A stretch of DNA of 64,000 nucleotides from Limisphaerales bacterium (GCA_003134375.1 PLAY01000176.1:48254-112253), one strand, 5' to 3'; shown: positions 2,449 to 51,876, numbered from the stretch's first letter. Numbers and translations: made by a program. The notes: generated by a model not told the origin, from the letters alone.

Positions 2449-2467
2449 ATTATACGAAAGGCACAAT

Positions 2468-15348: not shown

Positions 15349-16820
15349 AACTCGATTACGTTCCACTCCACTTCTTTCCCCTTTCGGCATTGTCCAAACC
15401 GTTGCGGGCCATTTTGCTTGGGTATGGAGTTCTATTGTTAATCATCGTCCTCCGCCTGCTATCCGGCGCACGCGAACGCAACCGGCACGTCGCGCAACTC
15501 GCCGGCCTCACTTGGAAACGCAACCAGTTTTGTCGCGGCTGGCTCATCACCGGCGACACCGGCTCCGGTAAAACATCTTCCGGCATCAATCAACTGGCCC
15601 ATCAGGTGTTTCAAAATGAATCCAAATGGGGCGGCCTGTGCATTGACGAAAAAGGCGTTTATTGGGAAACGCTCTCGGCAATGGCGCGATTCTACGAGCG
15701 GGAGCAGGATTTGATTCATCTGCAAATCCGCACCGACGACAAGGATGCACAATGGACGCCGCCCTACCGGTTCAACCTCACCGGCGACCGGAGCATCCCG
15801 TATTCCACCTACGCCAAATTCGTCGTGGACACGGCCACCAGCCTTGGCCAGGGCGGTGACAAGGGGTTTTTCAAGACCCAGGCGCAGACCCATATCGCCC
15901 ACGCCCTCGAATTCCTTTCCGAATTGAACCAGCCAGTCACCCTGTCCGGCGCGTTCGCGCTGCTGTCCAATAAAGGATTGCTGACCACGGAATTGGAAAA
16001 TCTGAACGCCCTGACGCTGGAAACGCCACGCCGGAGAGTGGTTTATGATCATTTCATCCATCGCTTTCTCAACCAGCCCGAAGAACAGCTTGGCGGCGTC
16101 CGTGAAACCATCGGCAATTACCTTCAATACTTCCTGACACCCGAAGTAGCCGAGGTTTTCTGCGCGGCCAAAAGCACGTTTGGCTTCCCGGTGATTGACA
16201 CGGGCAAAATCATCCTCGTGACCATGCCGCAGAAATTTCAGACCGAGCGGCGTTATGTCAACACGTTCCTGAAATTGCTTTATTATCATCACGCGCTGCG
16301 GCGTTTCGACCAGGCGAAAACCCAACGGGGTGAAAATAATTTGCTCATCCTATGGGCGGACGAGGCGCAGCGGTTTATGACCGCCAGCGAGGACGGCATG
16401 AGCGATTACAATTGCGTGGACGTGATCCGCGAAGCGGGCGCAACCATCGTCGCCGCTGCCCAATCCACCACATCGCTGATTCCACCTTTGGGAACCGACA
16501 AGTCCAGAGTGCTCACCTTGAATCTCCGCAACCGGATGATTTTCCGCGCCGCCGATGAAGCCGACGCGGTTCAAGCCGCCGATTTTCTTGGCAAGAAACA
16601 AGTCGTGAAACGGTCATGGGGGTCAAGTGCAGGCAGGCGCAGCGTTAATTACTCCGAGACCGACGAACACAAAATCAAACCGCACAAGCTCCGCAATCTC
16701 CGCGACCATGAGTGTGTGCTCGTCCATTGCGAGCAGGGTTTTCGCCGGACGGTGCTGCCGCCGTTGGAATTCGACGGGACGGTTGCCAAGTGGTTTCCGT
16801 GGTGGAAAAAATTATTCTGA
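15345..16820 (+). CDS. virD4: Type IV coupling protein (VirD4/TraG/TraD family)
   Basis: N-terminal TM helix, Walker A GDTGSGKTSSG, and 491 aa located in the Dtr module. Confidence 0.8.
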   Translation: MKLDYVPLHFFPLSALSKPLRAILLGYGVLLLIIVLRLLSGARERNRHVAQLAGLTWKRNQFCRGWLITGDTGSGKTSSGINQLAHQVFQNESKWGGLCIDEKGVYWETLSAMARFYEREQDLIHLQIRTDDKDAQWTPPYRFNLTGDRSIPYSTYAKFVVDTATSLGQGGDKGFFKTQAQTHIAHALEFLSELNQPVTLSGAFALLSNKGLLTTELENLNALTLETPRRRVVYDHFIHRFLNQPEEQLGGVRETIGNYLQYFLTPEVAEVFCAAKSTFGFPVIDTGKIILVTMPQKFQTERRYVNTFLKLLYYHHALRRFDQAKTQRGENNLLILWADEAQRFMTASEDGMSDYNCVDVIREAGATIVAAAQSTTSLIPPLGTDKSRVLTLNLRNRMIFRAADEADAVQAADFLGKKQVVKRSWGSSAGRRSVNYSETDEHKIKPHKLRNLRDHECVLVHCEQGFRRTVLPPLEFDGTVAKWFPWWKKLF

Positions 16821-18519: not shown

Positions 18520-18936
18520 GTGGCGCACATGGCAAAAATTCTTGTGATCGAAGACGAAATGCCGCTGGCAATGATGATGGTGTTTTTGTTGTCGCGCGTA
18601 GGCTATGACGTGACGACCGCCAACAACGGCCAGAAAGGGATGGAACTGGCGACCACGCGGAAATTCGACCTCATCACGCTGGACGTGGACTTGCCAGGCA
18701 TCAATGGGTTTGAAGTCTGCCGCGAACTTAAACAGCGGTGGATTTCCCATCGGACGCCGATAATTTTCCTTTCCGGGAACGCGATTGAAGAACGGCGGGC
18801 AATGGCGTTTGAATTTGGCGCGGTAGATTTTATCGGCAAGCCGTTTCTGGTGGAGGATTTTCTGGAGCGCATCGCGTCCTATATTTCACCGGCACAGCCG
18901 AGCGTGACGGCCACGGCAACAGGCGAGCCGGTATGA
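18520..18936 (+). CDS. Stand-alone response-regulator receiver (CheY-like) protein
   Basis: ILVIEDE...DLITLDVDLPGINGFEVC...PIIFLSG...KPF is the canonical REC pattern. There is no output domain. Confidence 0.85.
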   Translation: MAHMAKILVIEDEMPLAMMMVFLLSRVGYDVTTANNGQKGMELATTRKFDLITLDVDLPGINGFEVCRELKQRWISHRTPIIFLSGNAIEERRAMAFEFGAVDFIGKPFLVEDFLERIASYISPAQPSVTATATGEPV

Positions 18937-18986
18937 AAACACTTGTGCCATTCAGGAGGTGTTCCGCGATTTCAAAATCCTCAAAA

Positions 18987-19211
18987 TCAGATGTCCCAAG
19001 CGAGGTCGCGCACCCGGCACTTGAGGGCCTTCGCAAGTTTGGCAAGCGTTTCGAGAGTTATCTTCTTTTCCGCCCGTTCAATGTCGCCAATATAATTCCG
19101 CGTCAAATCGGCCTTTTCCGCCAGTTGCTCCTGACTCAAACGGAATTTCTTCCGCTTGGCGCGGACGGTTTCCCCCAAAACGCGATAAATTCTGCGCGAC
19201 GATGCTTGCAC
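18987..19211 (-). CDS. XRE-family HTH transcriptional regulator
   Basis: RLSQEQLAEKADLTRNYIGDIERAEKKITLETLAKLAKAL. Confidence 0.85.
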   Translation of the reverse strand: MQASSRRIYRVLGETVRAKRKKFRLSQEQLAEKADLTRNYIGDIERAEKKITLETLAKLAKALKCRVRDLAWDI

Positions 19212-19245
19212 AAACTAGCATCAAAGCAGAACAGCGAAATGATTC

Positions 19246-19264
19246 TACCAACTACCAGTTGGTA
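19246..19264. promoter_or_regulatory. Perfect palindrome TACCAACT-ACC-AGTTGGTA upstream of the XRE gene (operator candidate)
   Basis: Read directly. Located 35 nt upstream of the start codon at 19211. Confidence 0.45.
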
Positions 19265-19546
19265 TTATTTCAAAAATTTGCCTTGCCAATGCCGGGGAGC
19301 TTTGCCAGATATTTGTATGCGGGAGCCTAAATTAGTTTATCAAATAAACGATGTTAGCTTTGGCGAAAAGAGGTTTTTTGCCGAAAGTGAAGGCACATTT
19401 TGCCGACTGGCAAGGAGTCCTGTCCAGTCCTTGAAAATTCCACAGGGCGTTTTTTTCCGCCAGCCCCCAGAGAAACATAAAAGGTTCACCATTTTGTCAC
19501 AGGACTGCCACCCATCAAATTTAGGAATCATCAACACTAACCGAAA

Positions 19547-19966
19547 ATGAAAACCATAAGAAGACACTGGACTGCATTGACTGGAACTGCCGGCTGCGGG
19601 TTGCTCATTGTTGCCACCGCGCTGACCGTCTGGTCTCAAACCGCCCCCGTCTTGACGGTGGCCCCGACCGGCACGAACCAGCTTTTAATTACCATTACCA
19701 ATGGCGTCAGCGCAACCACCTATGACATCTACACGACGCCTGTTTTGGGCAACAGCGTGACTTATCCGTGGAAGGCGGCGGTGATTGGCACCAACGGCCA
19801 GACCAATTTCACGTTGAACATCGGGCCATATCAGGCGGGATTTTTTCGAGCGGTGGTGGATACAAACTCAGTGCCACTTTGGGAAGCTGCCGATCCGAAT
19901 AATCCAAGCGCAGGCATTCTGTCAGTGTTCATAGACAGTCCAGCCAACGGAGCGGTGCTGCAATAA
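19547..19966 (+). CDS. Secreted beta-rich protein upstream of the Rhs gene
   Basis: Signal-peptide-like N-terminus (GCGLLIVATALTVWSQT) and an Ig/FN3-like composition. Confidence 0.6.
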   Translation: MKTIRRHWTALTGTAGCGLLIVATALTVWSQTAPVLTVAPTGTNQLLITITNGVSATTYDIYTTPVLGNSVTYPWKAAVIGTNGQTNFTLNIGPYQAGFFRAVVDTNSVPLWEAADPNNPSAGILSVFIDSPANGAVLQ

Positions 19967-19993: not shown

Positions 19994-22900
19994 ATGAATT
20001 CACACTTGAAATTTACCAAGAAAAGTCTGTGGAAAATTGCCACGACTCTTTCGCTTCTTACTATCTGCATTAACTCTGCATTTGCAACGGCGGAGCAAAC
20101 CTACCTGACGGCTTCCAGTTACACGGCGACATCTGGTGGCGGTTCTATTTCCGGTTCGGCAACCGTCGCTTCCGACAGTTCATCAAGTTGCTCCTCGTTT
20201 GATACGACGTGGGAAAATCATTTCAGCAGTTCTCAAGTTTGGTGTCTAAATCTTAACGGGACAGGCACGCATCCGATTACGTCAAGCGATGTGAATTTTG
20301 GTGTAAATATAGCCTGTCCTAACCCAAATGTTGTGACCTTTCCGGCGAGCGGCGGCACGGAAACTGAAGGTTTCAGTATCAGTTGCACAAACGCGGCATT
20401 AGACTACGATAAAACTGGGACATTATCAATCAATTCGGACTGCACAGCATTGACTTCAGGACACGCATCAGCTTCGGTGACCATCTACAACATGGGTTCA
20501 GTCATGAACGCGGTGTTCGTTTCTGGCGGTGCGAATTATTCAAATTGGATAATGACCAAGGGTGATGGGAATCAAAGCGTCACCTTTCGCATTGTTCGCG
20601 GCGATACGGTGAACGCGAGGACAGTTACTTACACGGTGAGCGGCACTGCGGTCAATGGCACAGACTATACCGTTTCCCCTTCGTTGAGCGGTTCAGTCAC
20701 GATTAACGCCGGCAGTTCAAACGCAGATTTCACCATTTCGATTTCGGGAGCTTCGAGCCTTGTGAGTCCCAAGACACTGACCATAACGCTGCAATCGGGA
20801 TATTATCAAATCGGCAACGCCAGTGCCACCTTGACGATAGTGCAGGATGTGCCGGTAATCAGCGTGGCCGCTCCCGGTCAATATGACTCGCAAAACGGAT
20901 TATACGCCGGGCAATTTACCCTCACCCGCAGCGGAGAATTGACCAATTCTGTTACGGCAAATCTCTCTGTCGGCGGCACGGCTGTGGCTGGCAGCGATTA
21001 TATTCCACTGCCAACGTCGGTCACATTTGCGGCCAACCAAACCAGCACCAATCTTTATGTTGTGACTACCAATGCAAATTTGACCTATGCCAAGACCATT
21101 GTCTTATCGCTTAATAACAGCAGTTCATACTTTCAAGGGCTGACAACTAATGCCACCGTCACCATCCTGCCGAATGGTTCGACAACAAATTCGGTTCCAT
21201 CACCAACGGGAATGTATTGGCGTGGCAGCGGCAGCGACCCGACCTACTGGTCGCAAGTGATCCCCTTGGAATATGAAACGGGAACCGTGTATAGCAATTT
21301 GAACGGCAACTGTTCGGTCTTGTATCCCGGACTTTCATCATGGAGCAGCCAGACGCTTTACCATTACAACGCCACGAATTCATCGCCGCAGACCAACACG
21401 GCCAATCGAATTGCGTTTAACAATCCCATCGTCGCATTCGGCGAGCGCGTTGGTGGAACACCGCTGTATTACAGCCAGCCTTACTCTTTTGGTATCTACG
21501 CAGGCGACCCGATCCCGTCGAATCAGCCGGTGGTAATTCAGGCGTATTACCGCACTAATTTCCAACTGGCTGGCACAGTCAGTCTTTATCCACCCACGCT
21601 TTCCAATACAAATTTGTGGAATACCTACATGACAAATGGCTTTCAACTTATCACCAACGCCTATGGGTTGACGACCATTCTGGCCGGTATTCCCAACCTG
21701 TATTGGGGGGAAAATTCGAGGGGCGCGTTTATGCTGACGCACACCGCCAGCACCCAAGCCACTAATTATTTTTATGTCGTTGGCGTTGCCGGAAATCCCG
21801 CCGACATCAGCAACCCGATGGTGATAAATGCCAGTGGGCAGATGACAAATTCACTGCTTTACTCGTTGGAATTTGAGCAGCGACCGCCGTGGCGTTCGGC
21901 ATTTCTCGACCAGCCGCATTTTAACGGCAGTCCGTTGCCGCCATTCTACGCGGGCGACACTCTATCCGAAATGTTGACCAACACTCCGTCAGTGACCAAC
22001 GCAGTCAGTTTTTCGCTATCTACCGCGACTAATTTGGACAACAGCCCCGAACTGCGGCGACATCCGGTTTTGGACAACTTCGTTGCCAGCATGGGCAACG
22101 ATCCGATTGCACTGGCCAACTACGTCATCAATCAAATTGGCCTGACTGATCCGATGGATGTTAACGACAACGGAAATGTCGCGGAAAATTCTATAAATCC
22201 ACCGGGCGTAACGCGCGGCGCGTTGGGAACATTCTTGGAAAAGCAGGGTTCTCCCATTGAGCAATGCGCGCTGCTAGTTTATCTGCTACGTCAGGCAGGC
22301 GTGCCTGCGGTTTATGAATTTGCTCCGCACAACGGTATGCAAATTTTGGATGCCCGCTTGAGCCAGATGCTCAAATTTCAAGTGCATGGCGACATTAACG
22401 AAGCAGGGCAGCTTTACACCACCAACACGATGATTGCGGTAAATTATCCGTGGGTTGCCGCCTATATCGGAACGAATTGGGTGCATATTTTTCCGTGGAT
22501 GAAGGATTATCGAATCAATGAAGGGCTTAATTTGTTTGATGAAATGCCCACCAATTACAGCAACTCCTATGAATGGGTGCATGATTACATTTATGGCAAC
22601 ACCAACTTGATGTCGCTGGCCGTGGACAATGACAACACGATGCGGGTTATCTTCCCGCGATACTTGCAACAAACCCTTTTGCAAAATCATCCGGGCGTCT
22701 CCGTGGATGACATCGGCGTTAAAATCATCAACCGCCAGCATTACTACGCACGCTGGCAAGATTTTCCGACTCCGACCTGGGTGACCAATGTCAGCACGCC
22801 CATTGAAAATCTTTCTTCCAGCAGCATCACCAACATCAATCCGGCGTTGACCAATGTCTTCGACACGATGAGCGTCGAAATTTACAGCCTGAACGACCCG

Positions 22901-25900
22901 ACCAAAGACATCAAGACCGGCGATATGCGTCTGGTGGACTTGCACAACCGCGAATTTTACATCAACCAGTCCGTTGTCAGCGGCAATGTGCAGTTAAATC
23001 TCATCTTGATGCCTTTCCGCACCAACATTACCAGTCAATTTGCGTTCAGCAATGACACCAACCTATTGTCGAAAGAAGTGCTTACTTTGAATTTCGACTC
23101 GAATGACTACTCATTGGGAGTGCGCTTTAAGTATCACCGTCATCGCGCCATCACTCCATCCTATGCGATTGATCCGACCCTCACATTTCTAGGGCTGAAC
23201 GGCTATAACGAAATTGACATCGAACGTCCGCTTCGTGTCGGCGATCAAGCGGCAATCTGTTTGGATTACGGACAGGTGACGCGCGATATGCTCAATGTTC
23301 ACGCGGCGGATTTATGGCAGATGCAAAGCCTGTTGAACGCCAGCCCATCACAGGCAGGCAGTCAATCGCCTGATGTCTATGAAGGGGCATTGATGTATTT
23401 GGCTGGCATGTCTTATTACGAAAAGGTCAGCGAATTTGACCAGATGAACCAGCAATGGCAAAAATTTGACCAGCTTTCGGTTTTTGCAGCCGGTCTGTCA
23501 AAAATCGTTCCGGCGCGGGACAGCAGCGGCAATTTAAGCAATGGAACCGACCCCATCCTGCCATGTGTGGATATGTTCTTTTACGAAACGATGGTGGCGG
23601 GCAATGGCACGCTGCACCCGGATTCAGGACAGAACTACACCATGTCAGAATGGAATTACAACCTGTTCGGCATCGTGGATGGCTCCGCCGAGGAACACCA
23701 GGTCATCAACCGTTTTTATCAGCAGACTAACGCCGTTTCCACCATCCGGCTGTTGCAACTGGCGCAAAGCAGAGGCATGGGAATCGTGGCGTTGAACGTC
23801 TATAACTACGCTGCTCAAGGCACAACGAATTATCAGGGAAAGCAGTTGCAAAGTTGGGATTCAAGTATGTGGTCACAGGTTACAAGCGATTTGAAAAACT
23901 CCTCGACTTACGGTTATGTGACCGTCTTTATGACGCCGGGGCCGGTGACTAATTCCGCCTACAAGGGAATGGGGGCGTTGATTTTGAATCCGTATGACTA
24001 CGAGGCGTTGATTACTCCCAACAGCATGAATGGCGGGTTTGCCGGTCAGAATTTGCCAGCCAACACCGTGGAAGCCGCCAACACGCCCAACTACAATGTG
24101 AGTGACAACAACAATGATTATTCAGCCGCGTTGAACCAGCCAGCCAACAACACTACCACGGTGCCGGATGAAATCGCCAGTTACGATGCGCCGTCCGTGG
24201 CCAGTCAGGTCGGCAATGATGTGGTTGACCAGTTTACTACTGTTTGGGCAGCCGGTGTTTCACAGCAGCTTGGAACCACGGCAGGCACTTCGTCCTCGGC
24301 CTTGTCTGCGGACATTCTGGCGAGCGAGCAAACCGGCAGCTTGGGCACACCCAATGACCCGTCGCAGGCGGGCGCGCAGGTCGGAGACCCGGTGAACAAC
24401 ATTACGGGCGAATTTTATGTGAGCGAAACCGATTTGCAGTTGCCCGGCCCCATTCCGCTGGTGCTCCATCGCAATTATTCCAGCCAGAACATCGCGGACA
24501 ATCAGTTTGGCCGGGGTTGGAAGCTCAACATCATGCCTTACTTGAGCCTCAGCAAAAACAGCACCAACATCTATGCTGCCGACATGGATGGCGCGGTGCT
24601 GGCCTATGTCCACAGCACCAACGGCGCTACTACCAATATGTGGTTCCCCACGCAGGCCGCTAATCCGCAACTGCAAAACAATACCACTGCTGGCGCGGGC
24701 GGACTTGTCAACCGGCTGCGTGACTATATCCAGCGCTCCGTGAACGGTAGCATTACCAATTACACCCTCTATGGTGCTGATGGCAGCGTTCGAGTTTTCC
24801 AATACATGAAGTTCAACAGCGGCGCAGTTACCAATGCCAGACCATATCTGCTCCAATGGACGGATAACCGTGGCAATTATTACACGTTCACATACGATAC
24901 GAATTCGGCAGACGCTAATTTCGGCCAGATGCAGCGCATTCAGTGCAGCAACGGCAATTTCCTCGGCTTCGATTACGACGTTTACGGCCACATCATTGAC
25001 GCCTACACCGGCGATGGTCGCTGGATGTATTACTATTACGACGATTACGGCGATCTGGTGAGCGTCACCCTGCCGGATGGTTCAACGCGTTCTTATCAAT
25101 ACCAGCACGCTAATCAATCGGTGACAGGAGGCACGAACATCTATTCCACGCACCTGCTGATTGAAGAAGACAAGCCCGATGGCCGGGAACTGGTCAACGC
25201 CTATGATTCGCAACGGCGCGTCACCAACCAGTTGTCCACCGCCGGGCTGGACTTGAATCCCATCCGCACGGCGACGTTCACCTATTCCAATAATTATGTG
25301 TTCACGAATTCATGGACGAACACCATCTCTGGCTACACGCTCGTAGTTGACGGGAACAACCACACCAACCGTTACGATTACACTAACAATCTCATAACAC
25401 AAATCACCGACCCATTGGGGCAGACAATTCAACAAGTTTGGTTCACCACCAACACTAATGCGGTCGGTTACTATGCGCGCAGCGTGTCGCAGCGCACCGA
25501 CAAGCGTGGCCTTGTCAGTCAATATCAATACGATTCATACGGTAACGTCACGAATACCATTGTAACCGGCGACCTCACCGGGGACGGCATCACTTCTCAA
25601 ACGGCCACGAACACGGCCATTTACAGCACGAATTGTTTGCCGGTTCAAACAACCGACCCTGTTGGTAATAGCATGGTCACGGTCTATGACCCGACATTCA
25701 CGTTCATGCCGCAACAAGTTATTCGCTATGCGGGCGCAACGCCGGTCAGCACCGACTTCATGTTCTACGGCAATGCGACAAATGTTATAGTGAACGGCAA
25801 CATCACCCAAACAAACCGGGCATTTGGTGTCTTGACGCGCTTGGTTCGCGCTTATGGTTCAACCGACGCAGCCACCAATGATTTAGCTTATGATGGACAT

Positions 25901-28900
25901 GGATTCGTCACACAATCCACCCTTTATACCGGCACTGGCGACCCGAATGTGGTCAATACTTTCTTCTACAATGAGCGTGGGCAAATGGTGAATCAGGTAG
26001 ATGCTTTGGGGGCGGACAAGTTCTTTGATTATGACGCACTCAACCGGCCAACCGAACAGGAAAACTTCGACGAATTCGGTAATGCGCTGTCGTGGGGCTT
26101 TAATTATTACAATGACAATGGCGAACTGACTTGGGTGGATGGCCCGCGTTACAACCCCGAAGACTATGTGTTTTACGATTACGACGGCATGGGCCGCCGC
26201 TCGACGGAAATCCACTGGCGTTCGGAGGCCAAAAGCGATGGCAGCGGCGTCGAAGCCCCTGCCGGTTACAATCAATACGCCCAAAGTTTTTATCAATACG
26301 ACCCGCTTGGAAACCTGACGCTGGCTGTTGATCCGCGTGGCGCGATGACGACCAATTCTTGGGATGCCCTGTGCCGGTTGGTGCAGACCAAGCATCTTGA
26401 CGTGGATGGCGTCACCGTCTTGAGCACGGAAGGATTCAGTTATGAGCCGGGTGGATTGGTGCAGACGCATACCAACGGACTTGGCGGAGTTGCTGTCGCA
26501 CTTTATACTGACACCGGCAAACCAGAGTATCGCAGCAATTCCGATGGCTCGACAAACGCTTGGCGTTACTACCTTGACGGACGAGTAAATAAAGAGATTC
26601 AGGGCAACGGAGCTTACTGGCAGATTACTTATGATGATGTGAATAGAATTACCACCCGCATCTTCTATTCCGCCGCAGGCGTTCCAGAAGCGACTAATTC
26701 CATTCAACTTGACCGGCGTGGAAATGTGGTTCAACAAGTGGATGCCGGGGGCAATGTGTTCACCGCCACTTATGACGATTTGGACAGAGCCAAAGTCGTT
26801 GCCGGGCCAGCCATCGTTACGGTAAATAGCATAGTCACATTCCCAGGCGACCCGCCCACTTATGTCACCAACGTGCTGCAACAAGTCGGCACTTATTTCT
26901 ATGATGCTGCCGGACGCTTAATGACGAACATCAACGCACTCGGTGAAAGCACTATTACTACAAAGGATGCCTTGGGGCGCGTCACCAGTAACCGCATTTA
27001 CAGTTCTTCCGGCGCGCTTGTGCGCGAGAAATACATGACTTACTCGCCCGACCATAACAGCGTTACCACCACTGACGGTTCAGGTGCTTCAGCCATCGTC
27101 AACACAACCTATACTGACAACAACGGACACACAGTTCTGTCAGTTGCCTACCCATCTGTAAATGCGACTGAATTCACCTTGAATCAATATGACCTAGCCG
27201 GAAACCTCGCTTCAGCACAGCACGATTCTTCGGCTAGTGGCACACTCACAACTTGGACGACTGCAAGCCTTACTTACGATGGCCTAAACCGACCCATTGG
27301 CAAGATTGACCGCGACAACGCGCTTACCATATATGGGTATGACCCAATGGGCGACGTGACTAACCGCACCATGCCGGGTGGATTACAGTGGCAGGCGACC
27401 TACAATAACTCCGGCCAGATGTTGCAGGAGCAAAACTATGGCAACGGCAGCACCACCCGCACCACAACTTATAGCTACTACTCCAGCGGGAACCCGTTCG
27501 CCGGATTGCTTCAGACAAAGACTGATGGGCGGAGTGTTAGTTGCACTTACAGTTATGATGACTGGTTGCGCCCCACCAACATGGCTTACAGTGGTTCGTT
27601 GCCGGAGCAGAACCTGACGACCACTTGGCAATACGAGCCGCGAGGTCTTGTCACCGGCATCATTGAGCAGTTCGCCAGCACCAATACCGGCCCGGCAACA
27701 AGTATATCACGTTCTTTCGATCCTTATGGGCAACTGGCATCGGAATCTGTCAACGGTGGCTCATTCTCCTACGGAACGAGCCAGAGTTGGGACGCAGCCG
27801 GAAGACGCACCCAGTTGGGACTTGGCTATGGCTTCACTTGGCGGGCGGATGGCGCTCTGACATCGGCCAGCGATTCGACTGGCAGCGGCAGTTATGGTTA
27901 CGATACTGCCGGATTGCTGACCAACCGCTTGGTTGGCAACCGCACGACTGCCATCACATCCCGCGATGGCGAGGGGCGTCCGTTGTCCATCACTACCGCA
28001 GTCAATCTACTGACGCAACTGACTGAATCTCTTTCATGGTCGGGCGATGGATTGCTGGCCTCGCATACTTTGGCGCGCACCGACTTTACCGATTCGCGCT
28101 CGTATGCTTACGCCAGCCAAAGCCGCCGATTGGTTCAGGAACAACTCAACTTGAACGGCAGTGCCACTTGGACAAATACATTGAGTTATGACAACGGTGC
28201 TGGCTCTGGCCCAGGTGTTCTAACTCAAATGGGACAGGCCAACAGCACAGCCAACTTGTGGAATGGCCTTGCTGATTCGTTCTCACGCATCAGCGCGGAA
28301 ACCAACAACACCTTCCAGTATGCGGCCTACGGCCACGTCAACGGCCAAGCGACCGTCAACGCCTTTTTAGACAACCAGCCAATCCCTGTTACTGCCGTTG
28401 GGACAAATGCGATGCAATGGCGCGCGATGATGGAACTTTCGCCCGGCACGCATCAATTAAGCGTCAGTGCATTGCATCCGAGCGGGCAATTCACCGCATG
28501 GACGACGAACGCATTTACAAACAACATCGCTTATCAAACAACGGCGGATTCATTCGACAGTGCGGGTAATGTCACACAGCGCATTTGGAAAAATCCGAAC
28601 GGCACAACCAACCGCACCCAAACACTTTCTTGGGATGCGCGTGGACGGCTGCATGAAGTTAGTGAACGCGACAGTAGCAACAGCGGTTATGATTGGACAG
28701 TAACCTATGACGGATTGAATCGCCGGTTGCAGACGACAACCGCTTCCATCACCAACGGAATTGCCCTAACCGTGCCGCCGACAACCATCAATTCCTATTA
28801 CGATCCGCAAGTCGAGTTTCTGGAACTTGGAGTTTCCTACGGAACAAAAACCGTTTGGAAACTTTACGGCCCGGATTTGAACGGTCTATACGGCGGACTC

Positions 28901-30088
28901 AACGGCACTGGCGGATATGAAGCCGATTCGCCAAAACTTAATTTGTTCAATCCGACCATCAGCGATTTTCGCGGCAACATTCTTGGCTATTACAGTGCGT
29001 CGCAGGGCAGCAACGTATGGAATACCGCGCGTCCCACAGGTTTCGGAGCAGTGCCGGGCTATCGGCCAACGGCTTTGGCCAACGGCGCAAATATGCCGCA
29101 GTCGTCAGCATGGCGTGGACACTGGGTTGACATCACCGGCTATTACAACATCGGGATGCGTCCTTACGACCCGATTTCAGGACGCTGGCTCTCTGGCGAC
29201 CCGGCTTGGAACGAGCGCGATCCAAACTACTATACGTTTGCCGGTGGCGACCCCATCAATGGCTTTGACCGCGATGGAAGAATGTCCCGTAGTGATTATG
29301 GCAATGGGCTGTTTAGTCCCGCGAATGAAGGCATCACATGGAAATGGACTTTGATGCCAGCACCCTATCTAGGTTACACCGTAACGCTGATAAATGGCCC
29401 AAGTGATATGGGTGATGCAAGCCCCACCCGGTCTGTCGGCTCCACCGTGGCCAACGCCGTGTGGAATACTGACCTGTTGGATCAAAGCTGGGATGAATGG
29501 CAGCATCGGGATTTCAGCACAGGCATCGGAGCCGCAACGGCCATTACGGCAGGCGTTGGTTTAGTTTTTGGCGGCGCAGACGCGGTAGCCAACTCCATTC
29601 CCATAGTTGGCACTGGCAAGGCGTTGGTTGAAAATGCAGTTAAAGTAGGAGTCAAAGAAATTGCAGGCATCGGAAGCAAAACTGCCACCGAAGCAGCTGC
29701 AAGAACTGGAGAAGATTGGTTTGCATTTTATATGAAACAGGCTCAAACTGTGGATGTTTCTACCGCAAGAAATGAGGCCGTCTTTTATTCTGGTGAAGGG
29801 AATCAAGCGTTAGCCAGCGAATTTGCCGTAGCAAATGAAAAAAAGACAATCGAAATGACACCCGGAGGGAATTGGATGAACGCCGAAGAATTATACAGCC
29901 CTTACAGTCCATTAACAGGAGATCAGGCGGAGCAAGTTTGGTCAGTTCTTTCAGAAAGATTTGCCAATGGTGCAACAGGAAGTGCTGTTGGTTTTGTTAA
30001 TGGAGCTAGGGCAAATGGTGTTTTTAATACTATTGAATCCCCTGCGCTTTTCAAAAACCAAGTCAATCTAATCACAGGAGGTTACTAA
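19994..30088 (+). CDS. Giant Rhs/YD-repeat polymorphic toxin (3364 aa) with signal peptide, Calx-beta-like repeats, transglutaminase-like core, Rhs cocoon and variable C-terminal toxin
   Basis: Signal peptide LLTICINSAFATA. Calx-beta-like segments VTYTVSGTAVNGTDYTV and LSVGGTAVAGSDYIPL. Transglutaminase-like QCALLVYLLRQAGVPAVY. Rhs entry GDPVNNITGEFYVSETDLQLPG, followed by dozens of YDxxGxL repeats. Core end YYNIGMRPYDPISGRWLSGDP...GGDPINGFDRDG. Confidence 0.95.
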   Translation: MNSHLKFTKKSLWKIATTLSLLTICINSAFATAEQTYLTASSYTATSGGGSISGSATVASDSSSSCSSFDTTWENHFSSSQVWCLNLNGTGTHPITSSDVNFGVNIACPNPNVVTFPASGGTETEGFSISCTNAALDYDKTGTLSINSDCTALTSGHASASVTIYNMGSVMNAVFVSGGANYSNWIMTKGDGNQSVTFRIVRGDTVNARTVTYTVSGTAVNGTDYTVSPSLSGSVTINAGSSNADFTISISGASSLVSPKTLTITLQSGYYQIGNASATLTIVQDVPVISVAAPGQYDSQNGLYAGQFTLTRSGELTNSVTANLSVGGTAVAGSDYIPLPTSVTFAANQTSTNLYVVTTNANLTYAKTIVLSLNNSSSYFQGLTTNATVTILPNGSTTNSVPSPTGMYWRGSGSDPTYWSQVIPLEYETGTVYSNLNGNCSVLYPGLSSWSSQTLYHYNATNSSPQTNTANRIAFNNPIVAFGERVGGTPLYYSQPYSFGIYAGDPIPSNQPVVIQAYYRTNFQLAGTVSLYPPTLSNTNLWNTYMTNGFQLITNAYGLTTILAGIPNLYWGENSRGAFMLTHTASTQATNYFYVVGVAGNPADISNPMVINASGQMTNSLLYSLEFEQRPPWRSAFLDQPHFNGSPLPPFYAGDTLSEMLTNTPSVTNAVSFSLSTATNLDNSPELRRHPVLDNFVASMGNDPIALANYVINQIGLTDPMDVNDNGNVAENSINPPGVTRGALGTFLEKQGSPIEQCALLVYLLRQAGVPAVYEFAPHNGMQILDARLSQMLKFQVHGDINEAGQLYTTNTMIAVNYPWVAAYIGTNWVHIFPWMKDYRINEGLNLFDEMPTNYSNSYEWVHDYIYGNTNLMSLAVDNDNTMRVIFPRYLQQTLLQNHPGVSVDDIGVKIINRQHYYARWQDFPTPTWVTNVSTPIENLSSSSITNINPALTNVFDTMSVEIYSLNDPTKDIKTGDMRLVDLHNREFYINQSVVSGNVQLNLILMPFRTNITSQFAFSNDTNLLSKEVLTLNFDSNDYSLGVRFKYHRHRAITPSYAIDPTLTFLGLNGYNEIDIERPLRVGDQAAICLDYGQVTRDMLNVHAADLWQMQSLLNASPSQAGSQSPDVYEGALMYLAGMSYYEKVSEFDQMNQQWQKFDQLSVFAAGLSKIVPARDSSGNLSNGTDPILPCVDMFFYETMVAGNGTLHPDSGQNYTMSEWNYNLFGIVDGSAEEHQVINRFYQQTNAVSTIRLLQLAQSRGMGIVALNVYNYAAQGTTNYQGKQLQSWDSSMWSQVTSDLKNSSTYGYVTVFMTPGPVTNSAYKGMGALILNPYDYEALITPNSMNGGFAGQNLPANTVEAANTPNYNVSDNNNDYSAALNQPANNTTTVPDEIASYDAPSVASQVGNDVVDQFTTVWAAGVSQQLGTTAGTSSSALSADILASEQTGSLGTPNDPSQAGAQVGDPVNNITGEFYVSETDLQLPGPIPLVLHRNYSSQNIADNQFGRGWKLNIMPYLSLSKNSTNIYAADMDGAVLAYVHSTNGATTNMWFPTQAANPQLQNNTTAGAGGLVNRLRDYIQRSVNGSITNYTLYGADGSVRVFQYMKFNSGAVTNARPYLLQWTDNRGNYYTFTYDTNSADANFGQMQRIQCSNGNFLGFDYDVYGHIIDAYTGDGRWMYYYYDDYGDLVSVTLPDGSTRSYQYQHANQSVTGGTNIYSTHLLIEEDKPDGRELVNAYDSQRRVTNQLSTAGLDLNPIRTATFTYSNNYVFTNSWTNTISGYTLVVDGNNHTNRYDYTNNLITQITDPLGQTIQQVWFTTNTNAVGYYARSVSQRTDKRGLVSQYQYDSYGNVTNTIVTGDLTGDGITSQTATNTAIYSTNCLPVQTTDPVGNSMVTVYDPTFTFMPQQVIRYAGATPVSTDFMFYGNATNVIVNGNITQTNRAFGVLTRLVRAYGSTDAATNDLAYDGHGFVTQSTLYTGTGDPNVVNTFFYNERGQMVNQVDALGADKFFDYDALNRPTEQENFDEFGNALSWGFNYYNDNGELTWVDGPRYNPEDYVFYDYDGMGRRSTEIHWRSEAKSDGSGVEAPAGYNQYAQSFYQYDPLGNLTLAVDPRGAMTTNSWDALCRLVQTKHLDVDGVTVLSTEGFSYEPGGLVQTHTNGLGGVAVALYTDTGKPEYRSNSDGSTNAWRYYLDGRVNKEIQGNGAYWQITYDDVNRITTRIFYSAAGVPEATNSIQLDRRGNVVQQVDAGGNVFTATYDDLDRAKVVAGPAIVTVNSIVTFPGDPPTYVTNVLQQVGTYFYDAAGRLMTNINALGESTITTKDALGRVTSNRIYSSSGALVREKYMTYSPDHNSVTTTDGSGASAIVNTTYTDNNGHTVLSVAYPSVNATEFTLNQYDLAGNLASAQHDSSASGTLTTWTTASLTYDGLNRPIGKIDRDNALTIYGYDPMGDVTNRTMPGGLQWQATYNNSGQMLQEQNYGNGSTTRTTTYSYYSSGNPFAGLLQTKTDGRSVSCTYSYDDWLRPTNMAYSGSLPEQNLTTTWQYEPRGLVTGIIEQFASTNTGPATSISRSFDPYGQLASESVNGGSFSYGTSQSWDAAGRRTQLGLGYGFTWRADGALTSASDSTGSGSYGYDTAGLLTNRLVGNRTTAITSRDGEGRPLSITTAVNLLTQLTESLSWSGDGLLASHTLARTDFTDSRSYAYASQSRRLVQEQLNLNGSATWTNTLSYDNGAGSGPGVLTQMGQANSTANLWNGLADSFSRISAETNNTFQYAAYGHVNGQATVNAFLDNQPIPVTAVGTNAMQWRAMMELSPGTHQLSVSALHPSGQFTAWTTNAFTNNIAYQTTADSFDSAGNVTQRIWKNPNGTTNRTQTLSWDARGRLHEVSERDSSNSGYDWTVTYDGLNRRLQTTTASITNGIALTVPPTTINSYYDPQVEFLELGVSYGTKTVWKLYGPDLNGLYGGLNGTGGYEADSPKLNLFNPTISDFRGNILGYYSASQGSNVWNTARPTGFGAVPGYRPTALANGANMPQSSAWRGHWVDITGYYNIGMRPYDPISGRWLSGDPAWNERDPNYYTFAGGDPINGFDRDGRMSRSDYGNGLFSPANEGITWKWTLMPAPYLGYTVTLINGPSDMGDASPTRSVGSTVANAVWNTDLLDQSWDEWQHRDFSTGIGAATAITAGVGLVFGGADAVANSIPIVGTGKALVENAVKVGVKEIAGIGSKTATEAAARTGEDWFAFYMKQAQTVDVSTARNEAVFYSGEGNQALASEFAVANEKKTIEMTPGGNWMNAEELYSPYSPLTGDQAEQVWSVLSERFANGATGSAVGFVNGARANGVFNTIESPALFKNQVNLITGGY

Positions 30089-30384
30089 TGTTCACAAGTA
30101 TTAAGCCGCAAATAGCTCGGCATGATTCTGGATATATTGTCCAAAGTGGCGGAAAATATAGATTGCAGTATTTGGATAAAGATGTATTCGCGGAAATCAT
30201 GATTGATCGTGCGGCTATAACTGGCCTCTATCCTGAGTCCATGACTATCCGCAAGGGGGAAAAAGCGCCGTTAATAGCCCCCAATTTAGACGAGCAAGAA
30301 CTAATAATGGGCAGAATAATAAGTGCCTTGGGATTTTGGAAAATGAAATACGAAATTCTTAAAGGCAGACCGTATAACACCTGA
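30088..30384 (+). CDS. Candidate cognate immunity protein for the Rhs C-terminal toxin
   Basis: 98-aa ORF whose ATG overlaps the Rhs stop (TAATG). It lies in the same visibly A/T-richer tract as the toxin tip. Confidence 0.6.
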   Translation: MFTSIKPQIARHDSGYIVQSGGKYRLQYLDKDVFAEIMIDRAAITGLYPESMTIRKGEKAPLIAPNLDEQELIMGRIISALGFWKMKYEILKGRPYNT

Positions 30385-30481
30385 TTCAAACCATTCTCAA
30401 AAGAATGTTCAAGCGTATCGCGCCACAAAATTGGCGGTTGAATTCCGCCAACCTAAAGCCAAAACCTTATCCAGAACAATA

Positions 30482-30901
30482 ATGAAGATTGTTTATCGTG
30501 TTTTTCTTTGCATTGGGTTGGCTTGCGTGATCCCAGCACAAGCACAGCTTGCCGTCACAGTGTCATCGCCGAAAGTTGTCGGCCAAAAGGCCGTTGTGGA
30601 ATTGAAAATGACAAACGGTTTCCCCGAAAAAATTGAATCGGCCCGCGCAGTTTGTTTCTTGCTGGACGAACAGGGCAAAATGGCTGGCCAAGCCACCAAA
30701 TGGGTGATCGGCGGCACAAAAGACCGGGCAGCACTTGAATCAAAAGGCGAAACGACGTTCAATTTTGTCATCACCAGCAGCCAACCGTTTGCGACCACGA
30801 ATCTGACGGCAAATGTGAGTTTTTCCCGCGTGATTTTGAATGGCGGCAAGCCGGCGAACGTAATCAGAGACGTGAGCGTGACTGCACAATCGCAACATTG
30901 A
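30482..30901 (+). CDS. Secreted hypothetical protein
   Basis: Start at MKIVYRVFLCIGLACVIPAQAQ (signal peptide). 139 aa. Confidence 0.55.
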   Translation: MKIVYRVFLCIGLACVIPAQAQLAVTVSSPKVVGQKAVVELKMTNGFPEKIESARAVCFLLDEQGKMAGQATKWVIGGTKDRAALESKGETTFNFVITSSQPFATTNLTANVSFSRVILNGGKPANVIRDVSVTAQSQH

Positions 30902-30966
30902 AAAATTGCGTTTCCGCAAAAAATCCGGCAAAATCACCGGCCAAACAAATTGGAAATTTTTGTGGC

Positions 30967-32355
30967 ATGAAGTTTTTTTCTCGCATCCAAATGTTGCTGC
31001 TATTCGCGGTCGGGCTGATGGTCGCCTGTCCGCGAGCCGATGCACAGGGTTTCGGCCTTTCCGTAACAGCCTCGCCAAATCTTGTTGTCGGCACAAATTC
31101 CCTGACGTATGCCATCAACCTGACCAACCAGACGGGCATTCTGTTGACGAATGTTTTTGTGACCAACACGTTTTCAGCCGGGGTGACGCTCATCAGCGCC
31201 ACCAACAGCCAGGGAAGCAACAGCATCGTTTCATCCAGCCTCGTTTTCAGCCTCGGCGCAATCACCAACGGCAATTCTGCGAAAATGTCCGCGACCATCC
31301 AAACGACGACGATTGGATTTCTAACGAACACGGTTGTTGCCGCCGCCACCGGCGTAACAAACACCGCTTCCACAAACATCGTGACCCAAGTTGTCAGTTC
31401 GCAATCTGATCTTGGTGTTCAAATCGTCCCGCCAGTGCAGGCAGTCATCACCAACGATTTGACGACATACGAAGTGGTTGTGAACAATTACGGGCCGGGT
31501 TCTGCGTCCAATGTCGCATTGACAAACACGCTGCCCGTCGGAGTAATTTTGAAAAGCGCAAGCCAAAGCTACACCGTCAGCAGTAGCAATCTGATTTTCA
31601 ATCTCGGCACGCTGGCAAGCGGCGGCTCTGCCAATGTGCAGTTCGCGATTCAGCCCACCAATGCGGGTGTGTTGACATTTTCTGCATCCGTCGGCGCACC
31701 GGGACTGCTTGATCCAAACCCTACCAACAATGTAGCCAGCACGAACATCACCATCATCGGTTATCTTTCCGGCACGCTCATTGCAGTCACCAATTCCCCG
31801 CAATCCATCAATCTGCAAAACGGACTCACGGAACAATCCATTTTGCTTTCAAACATCGGCTTAACCGATGTTGCTGCCGCGCGGGTTGTCGTGACCGGCT
31901 TGACCAATCAGTTGTTTAACGCCGTTGGCACGAACAACGGCAGTCCGTTTGTTTATTACAGCAGGACATTGGCGGCAGGGAAAAGCGTGAACTTATTGCT
32001 TCAATACAATCCAAGAGGCTTTTTTCCATTCACAAACGGACAACTACACGCCTTCGCCGTGCCGCTGCCAAATTGGACTCCACCGAAGGCAACGGCCACC
32101 AGCACGAACCTAAACATCAGTCGCATCGTCAGGCTGCCCAGCGGCAATATGCTAATCGAATTTCCGTCCACATTGGGACAGGCTTACACGGTGGTTTATA
32201 GCGACAATGTTTTGTTTTCAAACGCCATGATTGCGCCGCCATCCGTCATTGCTCCCGCAGATCGTGTGCAGTGGATTGATTACGGCCCGCCAACAACGGT
32301 GAGCGCACCAACGAACAGCAATGCGCGTTTTTATCGCGTGTTCCAAAACCCGTAA
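30967..32355 (+). CDS. Secreted DUF11-type (conserved repeat domain) protein
   Basis: Signal peptide MKFFSRIQMLLLFAVGLMVACPRADA. Repeats such as LTYAINLTNQTG and YEVVVNNYGPGSASNVALTNTLPVGV. Confidence 0.65.
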   Translation: MKFFSRIQMLLLFAVGLMVACPRADAQGFGLSVTASPNLVVGTNSLTYAINLTNQTGILLTNVFVTNTFSAGVTLISATNSQGSNSIVSSSLVFSLGAITNGNSAKMSATIQTTTIGFLTNTVVAAATGVTNTASTNIVTQVVSSQSDLGVQIVPPVQAVITNDLTTYEVVVNNYGPGSASNVALTNTLPVGVILKSASQSYTVSSSNLIFNLGTLASGGSANVQFAIQPTNAGVLTFSASVGAPGLLDPNPTNNVASTNITIIGYLSGTLIAVTNSPQSINLQNGLTEQSILLSNIGLTDVAAARVVVTGLTNQLFNAVGTNNGSPFVYYSRTLAAGKSVNLLLQYNPRGFFPFTNGQLHAFAVPLPNWTPPKATATSTNLNISRIVRLPSGNMLIEFPSTLGQAYTVVYSDNVLFSNAMIAPPSVIAPADRVQWIDYGPPTTVSAPTNSNARFYRVFQNP

Positions 32356-35892: not shown

Positions 35893-37119
35893 TTAAATTT
35901 CAGTTGGCGGGTTGAGCGGTTTTCTGTCGTTGGCGATGGCATTGAGCAAACGCGCTTCGCCCATGCGTTCACCCTTGTAATAAACCACCACGCGATTGAT
36001 CGGCTGCGAACGCTGGAAACGAATGTGGATGGTGCGATCCGGCAGGTGGCGTGGCGCTTCCCAGCGAAGCGATTTGAACGCGAACGTGTTGTCGGCGCGG
36101 ACGTGGCGCTCCTCCTCGACAAAGAACAGCTCGTCGTTGGCCTCATTGGGTGGCAGAAAGCGAACCCACTTGCGATCCAGCGCGTAGCGGTCCAGCGGAC
36201 TCATGCCCAGCACGGAATGCAGTTGGGCGTTGTAATGTTCCTCGACCCACTGCGTGAACTGGCGATTGAGCGCGTCGAGCGAACTCAAATCCAGGTCGCG
36301 CGCTAAAAACTGGTCGCGCACCGTGCGAAAGAACCGCTCGATTTTGCCCTTGGCCGCGCCGTCGCGCACCGGCGCATGGTGCAGCAGGCAGCCGACGCGG
36401 GCGCAGATTTGGAGGATTTCCTTGGAGGAGTAAATGGAGCCGTTGTCCACATAGAGCGCGTGGGGCACGCCGCGTTTGTAAAACGCCGCGCGGAACGATT
36501 CGATGAGCGTGTCCACATTTTCCGCCGGGAAGAACTGACCGTGACAACAGACCCGCGACGCATCATCAAGGAAGGCGATGAGCCGGGTTTGCACGGACAC
36601 CCCGTTGATTTTCACAAACGGGCCGTAAAGCGTGTCCGCCTGCCACATTTCGTTGGCGTGGGCTTTGGCGAACGCCAGGCGGATTTTCTTGCTGGCCTCC
36701 GCGTCTGGCTTGAGCAGCTCAAACTCCCGCACCAGCCGGTTGAAGGTGTTGGGCGCAATCTGGGAACGGGTTATAAGTCCGGCTTCGATGCACAACCGGT
36801 AGAGCAACGCCCGCGCCGGCGTTTTACCGTGGACTTTGGGCAGCACCTTTTGCACGGCCTCCAGCACGTCTTCGATCACCACCTTGCGCCGCTTGCCCTT
36901 GTCGGAACGCGGCTGGTTTTCCATGACGGTCACGCCATGTTTCTGATAACGCGAATACCAGGTCTGGATCGTGCGCCAGGTGAACTGGCGCGGGTGGCCA
37001 TCCTCATCGGTAAAGGTCATCTGGCTGACGGCCCGGATGCGGGCCTGAATCGAATTGCCTTCAGCCATGTCAATGGCCCCAAGCACCCGCATTTTCAAAT
37101 AGGCAGTGGGATTTCGCAT
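35893..37119 (-). CDS. tniA: DDE (rve) transposase, Mu/TniA-like
   Basis: WQADT, LYVDNGSIYSS and AAKGKIERFFRTV (D, D, E). N-terminal HTH region. Confidence 0.85.
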   Translation of the reverse strand: MRNPTAYLKMRVLGAIDMAEGNSIQARIRAVSQMTFTDEDGHPRQFTWRTIQTWYSRYQKHGVTVMENQPRSDKGKRRKVVIEDVLEAVQKVLPKVHGKTPARALLYRLCIEAGLITRSQIAPNTFNRLVREFELLKPDAEASKKIRLAFAKAHANEMWQADTLYGPFVKINGVSVQTRLIAFLDDASRVCCHGQFFPAENVDTLIESFRAAFYKRGVPHALYVDNGSIYSSKEILQICARVGCLLHHAPVRDGAAKGKIERFFRTVRDQFLARDLDLSSLDALNRQFTQWVEEHYNAQLHSVLGMSPLDRYALDRKWVRFLPPNEANDELFFVEEERHVRADNTFAFKSLRWEAPRHLPDRTIHIRFQRSQPINRVVVYYKGERMGEARLLNAIANDRKPLNPPTEI

Positions 37120-38967: not shown

Positions 38968-39879
38968 TTATTCAATTTTGAGGCGGTCACTGGCATTGTC
39001 AGCCATGAGGCAACCCTCCGCGCGTCCGTTGGCGAGCAATGCACCGGCCACGGCGTCGCCCACGAGTTTTTCGGTTGCGTCCCGCATGGGGCGCGCTCCG
39101 AGCTTGGGATGGAAACCCTTTCGCACCAGAAACGGCAAGACCGTTTTGTCCAATTCAAGTTTGTGGCCGCGCGAGGTGAGGAACTCAACTTCCCGCGACA
39201 AAAACTTTTCGGCAATCTCCAATTGATGCTCATAGCTCAACCGGTTGAACACGAGCTTCTCGGTGATGCGCGCGAAAATTTCCGGGCGCAGGGCTTGTTG
39301 TGCGCGTGACAGAACGTGCCGTTCCAATGTCGCGTCATTGGAATGTTGCAGGCTCATCAGTTCGGCAGAGCCGATGTTGGAAGTCAGCCAGATATAAAAT
39401 CCACTGAAGTCCAGTGTCTCCCCCGTCGCCACGGTGATGCGGGCTGCGTCGAGCAGTTGCAGCATAATGTCCAGCACGCGCGGATGCGCTTTTTCGGCTT
39501 CATCAAACAATAACGATCCTTCGGCGGCACGTTCACGCATCGCCCCCAAATAACCCGTCTCGCCCAGCTTCGCGCCCAACAACAAACCAAGTGATTCCTG
39601 CGTTTGAAATTCCGACATATCGAACCGGAATAATTTTTCTGCGCCAAAGATTTGCCTTGTCAGCACCACGACGGTTTCGGTTTTGCCGACACCGGTGGGA
39701 CCGAGCAGCAGAAAACTTCCGCGCGGACGACCCGGTTTGGTAAGGCTGAATTCCCCCCGTTGCACCACGGAGACCACGCGCGGCAGAACTTGGTTCTGCC
39801 CGCGAATTTCCGTCCGTAATACGCCATCCAGTTTGCGGAGGCGTTCGATTTTCTCACCGTCAATAGTTGTCGTGTTCAT
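38968..39879 (-). CDS. Stand-alone Clp/Hsp100 D2-type AAA+ ATPase
   Basis: LLLGPTGVGKTE (Walker A), LLFDEAEKAH (Walker B) and LGARPMRD (sensor 2), plus a D2-small-like C-terminus. Start at the ATG at 39879. Confidence 0.75.
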   Translation of the reverse strand: MNTTTIDGEKIERLRKLDGVLRTEIRGQNQVLPRVVSVVQRGEFSLTKPGRPRGSFLLLGPTGVGKTETVVVLTRQIFGAEKLFRFDMSEFQTQESLGLLLGAKLGETGYLGAMRERAAEGSLLFDEAEKAHPRVLDIMLQLLDAARITVATGETLDFSGFYIWLTSNIGSAELMSLQHSNDATLERHVLSRAQQALRPEIFARITEKLVFNRLSYEHQLEIAEKFLSREVEFLTSRGHKLELDKTVLPFLVRKGFHPKLGARPMRDATEKLVGDAVAGALLANGRAEGCLMADNASDRLKIE

Positions 39880-39904
39880 GTCCCGCCATGATGCCTGAAA
39901 GCAT

Positions 39905-39933
39905 TTTTCATCCTGTGCGATTTCCGCACAAGG
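39905..39933. promoter_or_regulatory. Second copy of the palindromic box (TTTTCATCCTGTGCGATTTCCGCACAAGG) between the Clp-like gene and the T4SS operon
   Basis: The 18-nt TTTTCATCCTGTGCGATT is identical to 13050-13067, followed by (C/T)CCGCACA. Confidence 0.6.
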
Positions 39934-40006
39934 CGCTTTTGAAAACATGAGAAGATGACCCCGTGTTCGGCGGAAGACCCCGCCGGGAAAATTAAACAAC
40001 AATGAT

Positions 40007-51837: not shown

Positions 51838-51876
51838 ATAACCAGTTGGAACTTTTTGGTTCCAACCGCACATACC

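Follow-up and report, generated by a model that had tools for sequence, protein, structure and literature searches.

Toxins with the fold of ADP-ribosyl cyclase (ARC) and CD38 were predicted in 2012 by Zhang, de Souza, Anantharaman, Iyer and Aravind (Biol Direct 7:18; PMC3482391) as a Tox-ARC domain borne by RHS and other carriers, with Imm74 as the primary immunity protein. For two toxin/immunity pairs, Tac1/Tci1 (PMC12356396) and Pantoea ARCtox/ARCimm (PMC12605009), NAD(P)+ depletion, structure, catalytic residues and neutralisation were established in J Biol Chem in 2025; in these pairs the immunity protein is modelled in the catalytic cleft (PMC12356396, PMC12605009), and RHS is already among the ARC toxin carriers listed (PMC12605009). 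ARC toxins of the type VI secretion system (T6SS) are reported to have non-Imm74 partners with a different fold (PMC12356396). Here we describe a locus of this type in a 64,000-nucleotide stretch of DNA from a Limisphaerales bacterium (GCA_003134375.1, PLAY01000176.1:48254-112253), which we call the window and from whose first base all positions are counted: a large Rhs/YD-repeat polymorphic toxin with a small gene overlapping its stop codon. With a probability of about 0.88, residues ~3239-3364 of this putatively Sec-exported Rhs toxin are a Tox-ARC domain, a CD38-like NAD(P)+ glycohydrolase. The original prediction for the window, made from the sequence alone, had read the locus as an ARC NADase toxin with an immunity gene in a foreign cassette, and this part of it stands; the PT-TG segment and the new immunity family that it had also proposed do not. 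It had further called the ARC-fold toxin class proposed, which is too cautious in wording, since the class was characterised biochemically and structurally in 2025 (PMC12356396, PMC12605009).

The tip is the end of an open reading frame (ORF) of 3364 amino acids (19994..30088, plus strand). Exactly 269 residues (29279..30085) lie C-terminal to the core-end motif GGDPINGFDRDG, and the last of these, residues 3230-3364 (29681..30085, plus strand), make up the predicted Tox-ARC domain with the ADP-ribosyl cyclase/CD38 fold, a minimal bacterial version of ~130 amino acids whose structured part begins at about residue 3239. All strings quoted in the original prediction were found, in the order given, as was the 269-residue tail: VFYSGEGNQALASEFA, TIEMTPGG, VWSVLSERFANGATGSAVGFVNG and FNTIESPAL follow one another within the last ~105 amino acids. 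The family of the tail was revealed only by an exhaustive scan with a hidden Markov model (HMM), because single-sequence searches were too weak: a word-indexed protein search with the tail identified one toxin homologue and an NCBIfam search identified nothing. The exhaustive scan, done with a two-sequence profile on representative clusters at 50% identity, returned 1019 clusters at E <= 1e-3 and 442 at E <= 1e-10. In 140 of the 151 hits that were examined, no more than 10 residues follow the domain, and the ARC-domain proteins examined range from 79 to 2898 amino acids in length; a C-terminal position across such lengths is the signature of a polymorphic-toxin tip. Carriers among the relatives include RHS, SpvB with RHS, filamentous haemagglutinin/DUF637 and PAAR proteins, and the relatives come from Acidobacteriota, Pseudomonadota, Verrucomicrobiota, Bacillota, Actinomycetota, Myxococcota and other phyla; the nearest named relatives are from metagenome-assembled genomes of Opitutaceae/Verrucomicrobiota.

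When a profile of 43 relatives (alignment A2) was searched against PDB sequences with a reporting threshold of E <= 10, all 43 hits were ARC-family chains. The motif resemblance is thus not a matter of chance, because this profile matches ARC-family chains only. Bacterial matches were Streptococcus parasanguinis 9ouf (7.2e-17) and the Pantoea 'ADP-ribosylcyclase toxin' 9ro8 (1.1e-16); animal matches were porcine CD38 (6.6e-9), Aplysia cyclase (7.5e-8), bovine CD38 (2e-7), human CD38 (~0.005) and BST1 (0.016). Of the 43 relatives, 37 match PF02267 individually (best 2.2e-9), and a precomputed PF02267 annotation is attached to many of the relatives in the database. An AlphaFold2 model of the tip, made from a 77-sequence alignment, has a mean predicted local distance difference test score (pLDDT) of 94.1 and a predicted template modelling (TM) score of 0.87. 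It consists of four strands and five main helices, in the same topology as was reported for crystalline ARCtox. A Foldseek search of the PDB with this predicted structure was led by 9ro8, bovine CD38, 9ouf, Aplysia cyclase and human CD38 (probability 1.00, query TM 0.57-0.64), and the top 36 matches are all ARC-fold chains (probability 1.00, query TM 0.51-0.64). The ADP-ribosyl cyclase/CD38 fold had at first been proposed from sequence motifs; the profile and the Foldseek search of the AlphaFold2 model both hit the ARC family, and similarity to the fold was found in sequence profile and predicted structure alike.

The four motif blocks and the two acidic positions are in register in the profile alignments, as the original prediction had placed them: VFYSG aligns to aFFWSG / vFWS, TIEMT to TLEST / TLEDT / TLENT, QVWSVLSERFA to kaWedvSasYA / vfWnllSkrFA and FNTIESPAL to WenvELPrL / FGKYELPNL / FGRVEVHSL. 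The predicted active-site residues, all encoded on the plus strand, were compared with the characterised enzymes, and their conservation was counted in 149 aligned relatives. The predicted catalytic glutamate, Glu3348 in FNTIESPAL (30035..30037), corresponds to CD38 Glu226, Aplysia Glu179 and ARCtox Glu356; it is aligned to the catalytic glutamate of all templates, is invariant in A2 and is Glu in 142/149 relatives. The 'second' glutamate, Glu3287 in TIEMT (29852..29854), corresponds to CD38 Glu146, Tac1 Glu516 and ARCtox Glu299 (Glu in 136/149). Of the two cleft tryptophans, the one in QVWSVLSERFA is present: Trp3316 (29939..29941), equivalent to CD38 Trp189 and ARCtox Trp323, is invariant in alignments A2 and A3 and Trp in 143/149 relatives. 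The first position, CD38 Trp125 and ARCtox Trp273, is occupied by Tyr3265 in VFYSG (29786..29788), with Tyr in 116 and Trp in 32 of the 149 relatives. We regard Tyr3265 as a variant and not as a loss, because the residue is still aromatic.

In CD38 and Tac1 the second glutamate drives hydrolysis of the cyclic intermediate, and Tac1 E516A as well as Nac1, which are without it, give cyclic ADP-ribose (cADPR) (PMC12356396). Because the second glutamate is retained in the window toxin, the predicted chemistry is conversion of NAD(P)+ to linear ADP-ribose(-2'-phosphate) and nicotinamide, not to cADPR. An enzyme of the same fold could instead make mainly a cyclic or modified nucleotide (cADPR, or nicotinic acid adenine dinucleotide phosphate by base exchange), with the tyrosine at the first cleft position altering the choice of product or substrate. 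The prevalence of this tyrosine in the clade would fit, ARC enzymes are multifunctional with bacterial Nac1 as a cADPR producer (PMC12356396), and toxic nucleotide products were raised as an option by Zhang et al. (PMC3482391). We consider such a product highly improbable, given that the glutamate whose presence drives hydrolysis to linear ADP-ribose is kept in the window and in most relatives, that release of cADPR by Tac1 E516A and Nac1 depends on its absence (PMC12356396) and that both characterised toxins yield no detectable cADPR (PMC12356396, PMC12605009).

Several observations weigh against a hydrolytic Tox-ARC tip. The window toxin's own sequence stays below the Pfam threshold for PF02267 (E 0.009-0.075, with 0.075 for the tail; 12.8-15.8 bits, cut-off 25), and a single-sequence phmmer search of the PDB with the 269-residue tail found no ARC chain and one spurious transporter match. 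The Foldseek E-values are modest (1.6e-5 to 1e-3), with root mean square deviations of 4-5 Å. In ARCtox all four cleft positions are essential (PMC12605009), and the first cleft tryptophan, whose mutation W273A inactivates ARCtox, is a tyrosine in the window toxin. A Pfam scan of the 20 larger ORFs of the window, among them those on either side of the Rhs gene, identified no PAAR, VgrG or Hcp. Finally, all functional statements on this protein are drawn from homology.

The 98-amino-acid ORF downstream (30088..30384, plus strand) does start at TAATG on the Rhs stop, as had been read from the sequence: its ATG shares the A with the TAA stop codon (ggttacTAATGttc). A Shine-Dalgarno sequence, AGGAGG (30076..30081, plus strand), lies 6 nucleotides 5' of the ATG within the final codons of the toxin, with ACA GGA GGT encoding the T-G-G of the C-terminal ITGGY. 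GGAGG within the TGG codons is also found in most related loci whose toxins end in TGG followed by Y, H, F or N. With GGAGG inside the end codons of the toxin, translational coupling may therefore constrain its last residues. In loci L003-L013 and L027, the toxins end in ITGG plus Y, H, F or N, coded by ACN GGA GGN, and GGAGG is positioned 6-9 nucleotides before the start codon of the immunity gene.

At almost all of the 46 loci with ARC domains, the stop codon of the toxin has a small ORF overlapping or abutting it. A word-indexed search with the window's immunity ORF returned six homologues, the close ones being 60-84% identical. Of the 52 ORFs found directly downstream of ARC toxins, 37 are brought together by an iterated profile seeded with the window family; the united family spans a locus with PAAR/T6SS context (L007), Firmicutes and Actinoplanes. 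Two of its members pass the Pfam Imm74 model PF15603 (cut-off 27.1 bits), namely L037:2736 (E 6.6e-27, 93.9 bits) and L009:745 (E 9.7e-11, 42.1 bits), and several others match Imm74 at about 1e-4. A profile built from window-type sequences only reaches L009_745 at E 1.1e-12 and L037_2736 at 6.5e-5, with no hits among 1092 reversed or shuffled decoys. Comparison with Imm74 by hhalign gives 95.9% (E 6e-9) when intermediates are included and 66.6% with an independent Firmicute/strict set. The predicted structure of the immunity protein (pLDDT 79) has an alpha+beta fold, in which six or seven strands are followed by a single long helix and a last strand; neither a profile search of the PDB nor a Foldseek search with this model found a significant match or a similar solved structure. 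We therefore believe that the window gene very likely encodes a divergent member of the Imm74 superfamily and not a new family: the overlapping partner gene of the original prediction holds, and its description as a new immunity protein is probably wrong, as one profile iteration links it to Imm74.

The main rival explanation for this gene is that it comes from an immunity family with no relation to Imm74 that occupies the same slot, like the reported partners of T6SS ARC toxins. In its favour, and against the Imm74 assignment, neither the window ORF nor its seven closest relatives match PF15603 even at E <= 10, and hhalign against two strict Imm74 sequences alone yields a probability of just 40%. 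The PAAR/T6SS locus L007 has a window-type immunity gene, and T6SS ARC partners are stated to be non-Imm74 (PMC12356396). At least one clearly different partner exists, the ORF after an orphan ARC cassette in L005 described below. This rival is nevertheless unlikely, since a single profile iteration reaches two Imm74 proteins that pass Pfam and none of the decoys, the hhalign alignments (all three of them full-length and colinear) gain probability with the intermediates and with the independent set, and the protein resembles Imm74 in length (80-100 amino acids), predicted alpha+beta fold and identical gene position.

The arrangement of immunity genes varies among the relatives. In L003 and L004, three immunity paralogues of 89, 91 and 98 amino acids, 41-59% identical to the window's protein, stand in tandem after the same Rhs-ARC toxin (L004 2449..3343, L003 5680..6574) and form a small poly-immunity array; L001 and L002 have an orphan immunity homologue with no toxin upstream. 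A Thermoanaerobaculia contig (L009) has two ARC toxin/Imm74 pairs in tandem (2..1044 and 1210..3668), one with a Pfam-recognisable Imm74 and the other with a window-type immunity gene, forming a bridge between the immunity branches. In L005 and L006 (1..3949), a free-standing ARC cassette of 212 amino acids (P0165), with its own hydrophobic N-terminus, begins 268 bases after a full-length Rhs that ends in a Colicin-DNase/WHH tip. The cassette is followed by a 102-amino-acid ORF without resemblance to Imm74, and the arrangement suggests a displaced or orphan tip whose immunity protein comes from another family. Several loci from Firmicutes and Acidobacteriota have a second ORF of ~185 amino acids in which only the last ~80 residues match ARC, weakly and in part (E 1e-10 to 1e-13). 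It overlaps or directly follows the immunity gene in L016 (1236..1823), L019 (1584..2141), L021 (3612..4169) and L023 (3630..4184) and lies 68 bases downstream of it in L044 (3429..3980).

The carrier has the hallmarks of an Rhs polymorphic toxin: RHS repeats (Pfam RHS_repeat, E 4.3e-19, seven stretches), DUF6531 (1.6e-16), an Asp-rich core-end motif and a variable C-terminal tip. It also matches Calx-beta (2e-7) and, weakly, a transglutaminase-like family. The core end reads RPYDPISGRW...GGDPINGFDRDG, with the motif itself at 29243..29278 (plus strand) and preceded by RPYDPISGRWLSGDP; the equivalent motif in L004 is GGDPVNYFDHDG, and the related Rhs in L005 bears the Colicin-DNase/WHH tip in place of ARC. 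In Rhs proteins, the C-terminal tip is cleaved off at the core end, and GGDPINGFDRDG is presumed to be the site of autoproteolytic tip release in the window toxin. The N-terminus can be read as a Sec-type signal peptide (MNSHLKFTKKSLWKIATTLSLLTICINSAFA followed by TAEQ). This putative signal peptide together with the Calx-beta-type surface domains, and the lack of T6SS parts among the scanned window ORFs, could fit a toxin directed against eukaryotic cells, either grazers or hosts, instead of competing bacteria; as a target NAD(P)+ is universal, and the ARCtox of Pantoea poisons yeast and E. coli alike (PMC12605009). A eukaryotic target is very unlikely, though: a coupled immunity gene, with tandem and orphan immunity paralogues in the relatives, is the signature of interbacterial polymorphic toxins (PMC3482391), and a bacterium has no need of immunity unless the toxin is able to get into its cytoplasm.

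The core end is joined to the toxin domain by a linker of 134 amino acids (29279..29680, plus strand) with a Gly/Ala-rich hydrophobic stretch, FSTGIGAATAITAGVGLVFGGADAVANSIPIVGTGKAL (29513..29626, plus strand), that includes IPIVGTGKAL (29597..29626). This segment had been likened to the pre-toxin domain PT-TG, a resemblance that did not hold up: neither residues 1-140 of the tail nor the whole 269-residue tail had a Pfam match in the linker at E <= 1, PT-TG (PF14449) included, and a 'TG' motif is by itself not diagnostic of PT-TG. Homologous linkers were found only in a few close relatives, L003/L004/P0010 and P0039; the linker is lineage-restricted. At the DNA level, identity with L004 drops from 0.71-0.81 in the core to 0.43-0.59 in the linker and rises again to 0.67-0.72 in the toxin. 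One may speculate that the hydrophobic Gly/Ala-rich linker helps in membrane passage.

The base composition changes within this linker. G+C is 0.519 in the Rhs body, 0.543 in the first part of the linker (29279..29600), 0.432 in the ARC domain and 0.411 in the immunity ORF, and G+C at the third codon position falls from 0.60 in the Rhs body to 0.30 in the ARC domain. The original prediction had noted an A/T-richer stretch at about 29.6-30.45 kb, and the sliding-window analysis agrees: the toxin/immunity cassette at 29601..30450, a compositional feature of neither strand, has a G+C of 0.426, the lowest in the window (z = -3.5; mean 0.543, sd 0.034 for all 850-bp windows of the 64 kb), and the three lowest 850-bp windows of the entire 64 kb are all located here. 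The change point of cumulative G+C is at about 29623, on the VGTGKAL motif inside the linker and not at the Rhs core end. Because both G+C and third-position G+C drop there, the cassette was probably gained by recombination with a junction near VGTGKAL. A scan for promoters and terminators in 29500..31000 gave consensus-level matches inside coding sequence only, none of them convincing.

Taken together, the following mechanism can be proposed. The Rhs shell would enclose the tip, autoproteolysis at the core end would set it free, and the tip would reach the cytoplasm of a neighbouring cell, perhaps aided by the hydrophobic Gly/Ala-rich linker. There it would rapidly hydrolyse NAD+ and NADP+ to nicotinamide and linear ADP-ribose (2'-phosphate) via a transient cyclic intermediate, and growth of the target cell would stop. 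The producer would be protected by the immunity protein binding 1:1 over the catalytic cleft. The toxin/immunity cassette was probably gained by recombination, and the whole locus moves on a conjugative element.

Directly 5' of the Rhs gene are three overlapping small ORFs (18520..19966). The first encodes a response-regulator receiver domain (18520..18936; Pfam E 1e-25), and the other two (18933..19550 and 19547..19966) have no Pfam match; all three may share a transcript with the toxin and act as its regulators or as accessory factors. The 64-kb window, with the Rhs toxin locus included, is a conjugative element: it encodes a TrwC relaxase (10215..13034, minus strand; E 2e-83), a ParA-like protein (14282..14980), a TrwB/TraG coupling protein of a type IV secretion system (T4SS; 15345..16820), a ClpB-like AAA_2 protein (38968..40002, minus strand), a TraG/VirB4-like P-loop ATPase (41441..44194), TrbI/VirB10 (49002..50084) and a protein of 1754 amino acids with methyltransferase and SNF2/ResIII helicase domains (51675..56939). 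An IS-type integrase (rve, rve_3; 35893..37119, minus strand) separates the Rhs-adjacent genes from the T4SS genes; in L001, the MORN_2 gene stands directly before AAA_2, without an integrase insertion at the corresponding stretch. The neighbours CLIPPER/DUF11, MORN_2, AAA_2, TrbC and P-loop_TraG recur around the relatives in L001, L003 and L004. A tblastn search of the PLSDB plasmids with the tip found no match.

The locus adds a well-supported Rhs-borne case to the recently validated CD38-like antibacterial toxins that deplete NAD(P)+. It also indicates that the ARC family is much larger than Pfam annotation suggests, with ~1000 clusters at 50% identity, many of them annotated as 'hypothetical', that the Imm74 model fails to recognise a large branch of the cognate immunity family, and that most members of the clade have a tyrosine where CD38, Tac1 and ARCtox have an essential tryptophan. 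For annotation, the Tox-ARC and Imm74 profile models should be rebuilt to take in the window clade. It is conceivable, though quite unlikely, that the clade defined by the cleft tyrosine and the Pfam-invisible Imm74 differs from the characterised toxins in substrate or product preference, or that the locus serves as a competition or addiction module of the conjugative element, or that the 'non-Imm74' T6SS partners reported belong to this same immunity branch. Such a module would provide cells that acquire the element with a weapon and its immunity.

Among the characterised systems, ARCtox/ARCimm of Pantoea ananatis (PANA_2924/PANA_2923; 9ro8; Martinkus et al., PMC12605009) resembles the window pair most in structure: ARCtox is the best Foldseek match (E 1.6e-5) and, just behind 9ouf, the second profile match (1.1e-16). 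Both toxins have a minimal C-terminal ARC domain of ~130 amino acids with a four-strand sheet, a five-helix cap, both glutamates and the second tryptophan, and both have a small immunity gene directly 3'; identity in the structural alignment is only ~20%. The carrier is different, a 3364-residue Rhs with a predicted Sec signal in the window and a PAAR/T6SS spike in Pantoea, and the window domain has Tyr at the position of W273, TIEMTPGG for TLEST and a longer loop leading from the TxExT motif to the Trp helix. Tac1/Tci1 of Streptococcus parasanguinis (9ouf; PMC12356396) is likewise an ARC-fold toxin with an immunity protein of the Imm74 superfamily (Foldseek probability 1.00), and for Tac1 NAD(P)+ hydrolysis has been shown; its second glutamate E516 corresponds to E3287 of the window, predicting linear ADP-ribose. 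In contrast to the window toxin, Tac1 is a Gram-positive LXG substrate of the type VIIb secretion system, and its partner is a Pfam-recognisable Imm74, whereas the window partner is from a divergent branch that Pfam misses. Metazoan CD38/CD157 and Aplysia cyclase (PF02267) share the catalytic core, the motif order and both acidic residues with the window domain, which at ~130 versus ~250 amino acids is without their N-terminal helical lobe extensions and disulfides and has Tyr for Trp125; the metazoan enzymes are signalling ectoenzymes, while the window domain is presumably used as a toxin. The architecture predicted by Zhang et al. (PMC3482391), RHS repeats followed by an ARC toxin and Imm74, with wide phyletic spread, is exactly that of the window, and nothing categorical separates the two, apart from single sequences of the window clade being below the cut-offs of PF02267 and PF15603. 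The locus is thus a new, divergent member of the already known Tox-ARC class and leaves the concept of the system unchanged; it is distinguished by the tyrosine variant in the cleft, a Pfam-invisible branch of Imm74, a Shine-Dalgarno sequence within the ITGG codons of the toxin and its carriage on a conjugative element.

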